Of a DNA stretch of 64,000 nt, positions 63,631-64,000 are shown one piece after another (positions within the stretch are counted from its first letter, which is position 1; each line of letters starts with the position of its first letter). The notes beneath the pieces were generated by a model. It was given only the letters and a program-made list of their open reading frames with translations, was not told the origin of the DNA and did no database searches. Made by a program: the position numbers and the translations under genes. Origin of the DNA: Escherichia coli (GTDB taxonomy: Bacteria > Pseudomonadota > Gammaproteobacteria > Enterobacterales > Enterobacteriaceae); assembly GCF_003790525.1 (NCBI RefSeq), contig NZ_CP033635.1; one strand, written 5' to 3'.

Positions 63631-63659
63631 AATGGCGCTTTAAGAAGCGCCATTTTTTT
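63631..63659. terminator. Bidirectional terminator between fdnI and yddM (aatggcgc-tttaagaa-gcgccatt + T5)
   Basis: 8-bp perfect stem with flanking A/T runs on both strands. Confidence 0.7.
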
Positions 63660-63942
63660 ATTGCGTAACCAGACGGCGCAGTCGCGACACATCCACCGTT
63701 TTTTCAGCCTCTGCCAGGCTCCAGGCGTTTTGCAGATTCAGCCACATTTGCGGCGAACTGCCGATCACCACGGAAAGTTTAATTGCCATTTCTGGCGTCA
63801 AAGCTGCTTTTCCGGTCAGCAATCGGCTTGCCGTTGAGGGAGCAATTTCCATTGCTCTGGCAAACTCGCGCAGGCTGACATTAAGTTCGTCCAGTGATTC
63901 CTGAATAATGTCCCCCGGGCGGGGATGATTGGCCATTTTCAT
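63658..63942 (-). CDS. yddM: HTH-XRE DNA-binding protein, HigA-type antitoxin-like
   Basis: 94-aa ORF; HTH region [36 protein letters not shown]. Confidence 0.8.
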
Positions 63943-64000
63943 CAGTGTCTTTACTCTCAGTAGCGTTCCTTCACCAGGAGCACTATCATTATTGTTCCTT

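Follow-up and report, generated by a model that had tools for sequence, protein, structure and literature searches.

The yddM gene at the end of the 64-kb stretch of Escherichia coli DNA analysed here (hereafter the window) is very probably a HigA antitoxin that was bereft of its toxin by deletion of higB and that persists as an autorepressing XRE-type regulator. The antitoxin gene is intact, its cognate toxin is absent from the locus and the arrangement derives from a complete module, which is the definition of an orphan antitoxin. An intact toxin gene adjacent to yddM in the same operon, as in a complete type II higBA module, is missing at this locus.

The yddM coding sequence occupies positions 63658..63942 on the minus strand, within the last 343 bases of the window, and runs from an ATG start over 94 codons. 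Its product carries an N-terminal helix-turn-helix domain of the Cro/C1 (XRE) type, which matches Pfam HTH_3 over residues 14-65 (E=7.6e-10, 39.1 bits against a cutoff of 23). The protein also scores well above the curated cutoff of the NCBIfam profile TIGR02607, 'HigA family addiction module antitoxin' (93.7 bits against 47.7, E=4.5e-27), and covers positions 1-80 of its 81. Moreover, all 94 residues are 100% identical to the 'antitoxin HigA' of PDB entries 2ICP and 2ICT, and the RefSeq annotation of E. coli SMS-3-5 places yddM at the same coordinates, with the product WP_000781370.1. PDB 2ICP has been named as the HigA of E. coli CFT073 (PMC6987408), and PMC4803016 and PMC6987408 ascribe this structure to Arbing et al. 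2010. Orthologues of yddM lie directly 3' of a HigB (PF05015) gene in 1331 E. coli genomes and at 30 of 41 related loci in other species. The original prediction had placed YddM among the XRE-type helix-turn-helix proteins of the HigA antitoxin class; the two profile matches and the identity to the crystallised protein bear this out, and the gene at the window edge is confirmed as a HigA-family antitoxin rather than a chance ORF. A start at an upstream in-frame GTG, giving 120 amino acids, was considered and rejected, since the 94-residue start overlaps the toxin stop codon in toxin-bearing strains and the crystallised protein has 94 residues.

The original prediction had also counted 58 bp upstream of yddM before the window ends, which is exact (63943..64000), and had stated that the partner toxin is not visible in the window and that the window alone cannot decide on its presence. 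The toxin is indeed not visible: tblastn with E. coli HigB gave noise only, with a best E of 0.11 in the 64-kb window and of 1.6 in a 9.1-kb extension around the locus, the two regions covered by the toxin search. A HigB remnant recognisable by protein similarity was rejected on these same searches of window and extension. As to whether the window can decide, proof does need the bases past the edge, but the 58 bases say more than had been assumed. Compared ungapped with the 58 bases of higB coding sequence that stand directly 5' of yddM in toxin-bearing strains, they match at 19 positions. Stops within 20 nt of the yddM ATG close two upstream frames, the remaining frame being that of yddM itself. 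Thus, a toxin ORF abutting yddM was already unlikely from the window alone.

The bases past the edge can be read from identical genomes. Many genomes, E. coli SMS-3-5 among them, match the last 1.1 kb of the window at 100% identity, and over the last 24.4 kb a 100.0% match was obtained with SMS-3-5 and no fewer than seven others. Three of the latter were inspected (SMS-3-5, XDL and KFu014), and in each of them a 145-bp spacer separates yddM from adhP on its 5' side, with maeA coming next; on the yddM strand, the adhP-yddM spacer does not fully contain any ORF of more than 25 aa. The HigB/RelE-fold ORF that had been envisaged past the window end is therefore not there, and yddM is an orphan antitoxin at this locus rather than half of an intact module. 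An intact higBA module with its toxin just past the edge is the arrangement of 1331 of 5426 E. coli genomes and of most related species, and the YddM protein is the same in toxin-bearing and toxin-less strains. However, the 58 window bases are promoter/operator sequence and not higB codons, the three identical genomes continue into adhP after 145 bp and tblastn gave no HigB signal, which leaves such a module practically no chance in this strain.

Two side observations concern the window itself. When a 25-kb query was matched to SMS-3-5, the unbroken stretch of 100% identity left out its first 621 bases (39001-39621). The query in its entirety has thousands of matches on plasmids, with a median of 12 per genome; these numbers point to an insertion sequence or another mobile repeat within the 25 kb, possibly in the first bases that were left out. 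The ORF list starts fdnG at 59653 (59653-62064, 803 aa), and RefSeq fdnG in an identical genome has 1015 aa, which is consistent with the in-frame UGA known to encode selenocysteine in formate dehydrogenase-N.

In other E. coli strains, the toxin gene is present at the very same site, and to look for a partner there was sound biological reasoning. When a junction query was run across 5,426 complete E. coli genomes, about 318 additional bases, with the annotation of a RelE/ParE-family toxin, interrupted the match in a subset of them; higB occupies this position in 1331 of the 5426 (about a quarter). Isolate CRECJHTL34 carries an intact 279-bp higB whose stop overlaps the yddM start (ATGA). The 92-residue product matches Pfam PF05015 'HigB-like toxin' (E=1.4e-17) and the HigB endoribonuclease of Proteus vulgaris (4MCT_B, E=8e-32), with a match that takes in the C-terminal EDYH, and by homology it would be a RelE-fold ribosome-dependent mRNase. 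The accession of the intact E. coli HigB is WP_000605676.1. Many of these toxin genes are themselves damaged. In an evenly spaced sample of 60 toxin-bearing genomes, 32 had the full 279-bp span and 25 (about 42%) a 278-bp span. The shorter form has lost 1 bp, and the annotation of ST131-type strains treats it as a pseudogene with a frameshift. Among complete E. coli genomes, the toxin is thus deleted in about 75% and frameshifted in roughly another 10%. The frameshifted higB was seen in Ecol_732 and other ST131-type genomes (locus L002, 1785-2062), and the 278-bp set includes SE15 and strains labelled O25b:H4-ST131.

The HigB-HigA pair of P. vulgaris Rts1 (4MCT/4MCX) belongs to the same family and has the toxin-first order that is ancestral at the yddM locus. 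Rts1 HigA matches YddM with E=1.3e-18, Rts1 HigB matches E. coli HigB with the E value given above, and the helix-turn-helix of Rts1 HigA is N-terminal, as in YddM (PMC6987408). In contrast to the window locus, which is chromosomal and devoid of a toxin, the Rts1 system is plasmid-borne, complete and experimentally toxic.

The paired state extends beyond E. coli. When one genome of each bacterial species was scanned, 41 loci proved to encode YddM relatives, and at 30 of these an essentially full-length HigB homologue lies just 5' of the antitoxin start or overlaps it. The HigB homologue is directly 5' in E. albertii, in three other Escherichia lineages and in about 13 Citrobacter species, with fdnI 3' of the pair in these Escherichia and Citrobacter and adhP 5' in several; the pair is also found in Cedecea, Buttiauxella, Pluralibacter, Enterobacter, Erwinia and Chimaeribacter. 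Since the pair is syntenic in E. albertii, other Escherichia and Citrobacter, the paired state is ancestral at this site and the toxin-less state is derived.

Independent decay of the toxin beside an intact yddM homologue was also observed in other genera (five loci). Citrobacter sp. FP75 higB has an internal deletion that leaves about 34 codons (L012 2395-2498), and frameshifts seem to have affected the higB genes of C. portucalensis A60 (L018 2234-2498) and Xenorhabdus lircayensis. In X. khoisanae, only a C-terminal HigB fragment is left, and at one decayed locus, in Chimaeribacter californicus, no HigB signal was found beside the intact yddM homologue.

The ancestral locus read adhP-[higB-yddM]-fdnI, a toxin-first type II module with a HigB of 92 aa and the ATGA stop/start overlap. 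We aligned toxin-less alleles (window/SMS-3-5, K-12 and O104:H4) with toxin-bearing alleles using MAFFT. The toxin-less alleles have one common junction, at which the region 5' of higB is kept and essentially the entire higB ORF is missing. Under a single-gap model, with 78 matches in 97 positions, the net deletion is of 268 bp and starts just after a conserved third GGAAC half-site. This strain, like K-12, carries this net 268-bp deletion of higB. The alignments and the single-gap model place the junction on the minus strand at 63943..63962, where a degenerate remnant of about 20 nt of the higB 3' end (TACTGAGAGTAAAGACACTG) precedes yddM; the weak Shine-Dalgarno-like GAGAG of yddM lies within this remnant. 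The breakpoint is ambiguous within about 10 nt, MAFFT giving two placements that score about equally, and the higB and yddM start regions are alike over a short stretch (TGATAATGAA and TGATGAAAATG). In the window lineage, K-12 and O104:H4, the deletion took the ribosome-binding site of higB, its start codon and all but about 20 degenerate bases of its ORF, and joined the old higBA promoter/operator region straight to yddM. Descent from a module, deletion of higB and fusion of its promoter to yddM are all demonstrated at this locus.

Comparison with two reference strains illustrates both states. K-12 YddM (b1477) is like that of the window in its protein (WP_000781370.1), its toxin-less junction and its 145-bp spacer, but the two yddM genes differ at seven nucleotides, all synonymous, and the second of two candidate operators, O2, has a perfect TGTTCC in K-12 and TGCTCC in the window. 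CFT073 HigA (PDB 2ICP/2ICT) has the same 94 residues as the window YddM and is likewise encoded on the chromosome with adhP on one side and fdnI on the other; in contrast to the window strain, in which it is deleted, a higB-type gene precedes higA there, described in AIEC NRG857c as common to UPEC CFT073 (PMC7232551).

Two unusual assemblies were encountered around this junction. The O157:H7 strain TR01 (NZ_CP033605.1, L008 590-770) has the 145-bp adhP-yddM spacer of toxin-less strains, in which segments of 34 nt and 48 nt are swapped, at equal length, for sequence found in the toxin-bearing haplotype; the final 47 nt of higB are among what was brought in. Only two matches to the toxin gene had a coverage below 80%, this being one of them, and a mosaic that preserves length in this way seems to stem from assembly or polishing and not to be real. 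In the assembly of 'Clostridium sp. CMCC3677', a 214-bp contig with a coverage of 1.09 (L039) consists of a K-12-type adhP-yddM spacer and the 5' end of yddM, and is almost certainly E. coli contamination.

The retained upstream region carries conserved candidate control elements. Sixteen Escherichia and Citrobacter sequences share the invariant or near-invariant blocks TGTT(G/C)C-N7-GGAACA-N10-TGTTCC-N7-GGAACA, that is, two tandem 19-bp palindromes, O1 and O2, flanking a -10-like GATAGT. All the corresponding elements in the window lie on the minus strand. Candidate operator O2, recognised by its conserved half-sites, spans 63964..63982 and reads TGCTCC-N7-GGAACG, a degenerate copy of TGTTCC-N7-GGAACA. 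The candidate -10 hexamer GATAGT, conserved in the 16-sequence alignment, is at 63982..63987 and would belong to the ancestral higBA promoter, now that of yddM alone. The right half-site GGAACA of candidate operator O1, in invariant alignment columns, is at 63993..63998. The left half of O1, TGTTGC, stands 7 nt further 5', just past the window end (L001 5089-5121), as does a -35-like TTGCGT (L001 5104-5109), and GATAGT lies 16 nt 3' of this TTGCGT.

O2 of this strain has one mismatch in each half-site (TGcTCC and GGAACg), and K-12 keeps TGTTCC; the perfect inverted repeat TGTTCC/GGAACA is found in a toxin-bearing strain and not in this one. Because of these mismatches, repression may be weaker in this strain. 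A strict consensus sigma-70 scan of the spacer called no promoter. RpoD-holoenzyme SELEX in K-12 has placed a promoter in the adhP-yddM spacer (PMC3946193).

By analogy with characterised relatives, we infer that O1 and O2 are HigA-binding operators. P. aeruginosa HigA and P. putida GraA (6JPI, 6F8S) bind as two cooperating dimers to paired palindromes in their own promoters (PMC6987408), and the palindrome pair in the window spacer is analogous to their targets, although the palindromes differ (TTAAC GTTAA in those two proteins, TGTTCC-N7-GGAACA here). YddM would still be made from the old higBA promoter, and YddM dimers might bind the two tandem TGTT(G/C)C-N7-GGAACA palindromes around the -10 and repress their own synthesis, as these relatives do. 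With no cognate toxin to neutralise, YddM would stay on as a small XRE-type DNA-binding regulator, and addiction or growth-arrest activity would be absent from the locus in this strain.

A variant of this control region was seen in RIVM_C037166 (L005 572-713), in which an extra 29-bp deletion in the spacer has taken out the right half of O1, the -10-like GATAGT and the left half of O2. The YddM protein of this strain is intact, and an IS200/IS605 transposase gene lies 3' of yddM, where other strains have fdnI. This shorter span occurred in about 2 of 60 evenly sampled genomes.

On its other side, yddM converges with fdnI, and folding indicates a bidirectional terminator hairpin between fdnI (+) and yddM (-) at 63628..63657. 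It reaches -17.6 kcal/mol on the plus strand, where a run of seven U follows, and -16.2 kcal/mol on the minus strand, with z of about -3.5 on both strands, and none of 200 shuffles folded as well. The hairpin was not listed by a consensus terminator scan. In an Rfam scan of L001 4600-5300, nothing reached the gathering score, and the weak sub-threshold matches were look-alikes of the terminator hairpin.

The antitoxin left behind has changed very little at the protein level. Eight yddM alleles differ at 12 nucleotide sites, all 12 of them synonymous, and 8 of these are variable within the toxin-less set. Given that 75.5% of sites are nonsynonymous, an all-synonymous outcome would arise by chance with a probability of about 5e-8 for the 12 sites and about 1e-5 for the 8. 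The same accession, WP_000781370.1, was found in 10 of 10 complete E. coli genomes inspected, and yddM has a match in about 99.7% of genomes, with none in about 13-14 of 5426. This all-synonymous variation indicates that the lone antitoxin is still under selection; recombination with alleles of toxin-bearing strains may have exaggerated the pattern in part. Most likely, by analogy with its relatives, the lone YddM works as a self-repressing DNA-binding protein.

Data from K-12 are in agreement with a DNA-binding role. In a ChIP-exo study, YddM appears among the candidate transcription factors, with a list of target genes and a motif for binding, and 10 of the 16 candidates were confirmed to bind DNA (PMC6237786). 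In addition, the Keio yddM mutant shows an uncomplemented hypersusceptibility to epetraborole (PMC12457515), and yddM interacts genetically with stress regulators (PMC9283627); these are weak phenotypic hints.

It is also possible, yet in our view quite unlikely, that yddM is a functionless relic drifting to loss, with too little time elapsed since the toxin disappeared. The O2 mismatches in this strain, the empty consensus promoter scan, the 29-bp promoter-deletion haplotype, the IS150-mediated loss of the gene and the few genomes without it all point in this direction, and toxin-first decay recurs in other genera. The promoter-deletion haplotype, the IS150 event and the 13-14 or so genomes without a match do show that yddM is dispensable. 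However, a relic fits poorly with the 12 variable sites, none of which changes an amino acid and 8 of which are polymorphic in the toxin-less set, with a single protein accession in all ten inspected genomes and a gene kept almost species-wide, and with the DNA binding reported for K-12 (PMC6237786). The IS150 event was seen in S1-CAM-01-C (L007 901-3031), where the element stands in place of yddM and the 3' part of adhP.

A retained regulator is the reading that we favor. Another proposal is that the lone YddM is kept for anti-addiction or immunity, neutralising HigB toxins that arrive with plasmids, phages or recombination with toxin-bearing strains. The purifying selection on YddM in strains without the cognate toxin would suit this role, HigB homologues are encoded on 539 plasmid records (99 from Escherichia) and the chromosomal higB allele circulates in the species. 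But the plasmid homologues are less than 60% identical to the cognate HigB, except for three records at 90% or more, of which at least one is chromosome-sized and typed as plasmid. Toxin-antitoxin pairs are specific, and cross-neutralisation is not expected by default below 60% identity. Neutralisation of plasmid HigB homologues by YddM is thus speculative, and we regard the immunity role as unlikely.

A plasmid origin or counterpart of this HigB was likewise rejected, on the same identities and the mis-typed record. The plasmid collection includes NZ_CP141089.1 (4.9 Mb), whose HigB is 100% identical to this one, and NZ_CP141085.1 (385 kb, E. coli KE48) carries higB-yddM and is apparently the one match counted as plasmid. 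Both are probably mis-typed replicons or chromosome fragments.

In a broader form, the lone YddM may be selected for a job of its own, either the regulation of host genes or a standing defence as an antidote against re-entering HigB toxins. The host-gene alternative is drawn from the K-12 ChIP-exo sites and the genetic interactions with stress regulators. We hold such a job to be a serious possibility, though one that we would still bet against.

The coexistence of toxin-present and antitoxin-only strains at this locus is already published. Bustamante and Vidal described it as parE-2/higA-2 in AIEC NRG857c, with a toxin gene common to UPEC CFT073, and found the antitoxin alone in K-12 and HS (PMC7232551). 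Our work adds quantitative context only, namely the toxin frequency in 5,426 genomes, the ST131-type frameshift, the Citrobacter synteny, the deletion anatomy, the conserved operators and the synonymous-only variation.

To conclude, nothing at this locus departs from the standard toxin-first decay of chromosomal toxin-antitoxin modules, and our results matter little beyond correct annotation: yddM is best annotated as a lone antitoxin of the HigA type or a small regulator, and its presence is no sign of a working toxin-antitoxin system in this strain. If YddM does have a job of its own, the species-wide presence and absence of higB would represent a balanced conflict and not simple decay. This textbook case of toxin-first decay provides a handy natural system for asking why orphan antitoxins persist.
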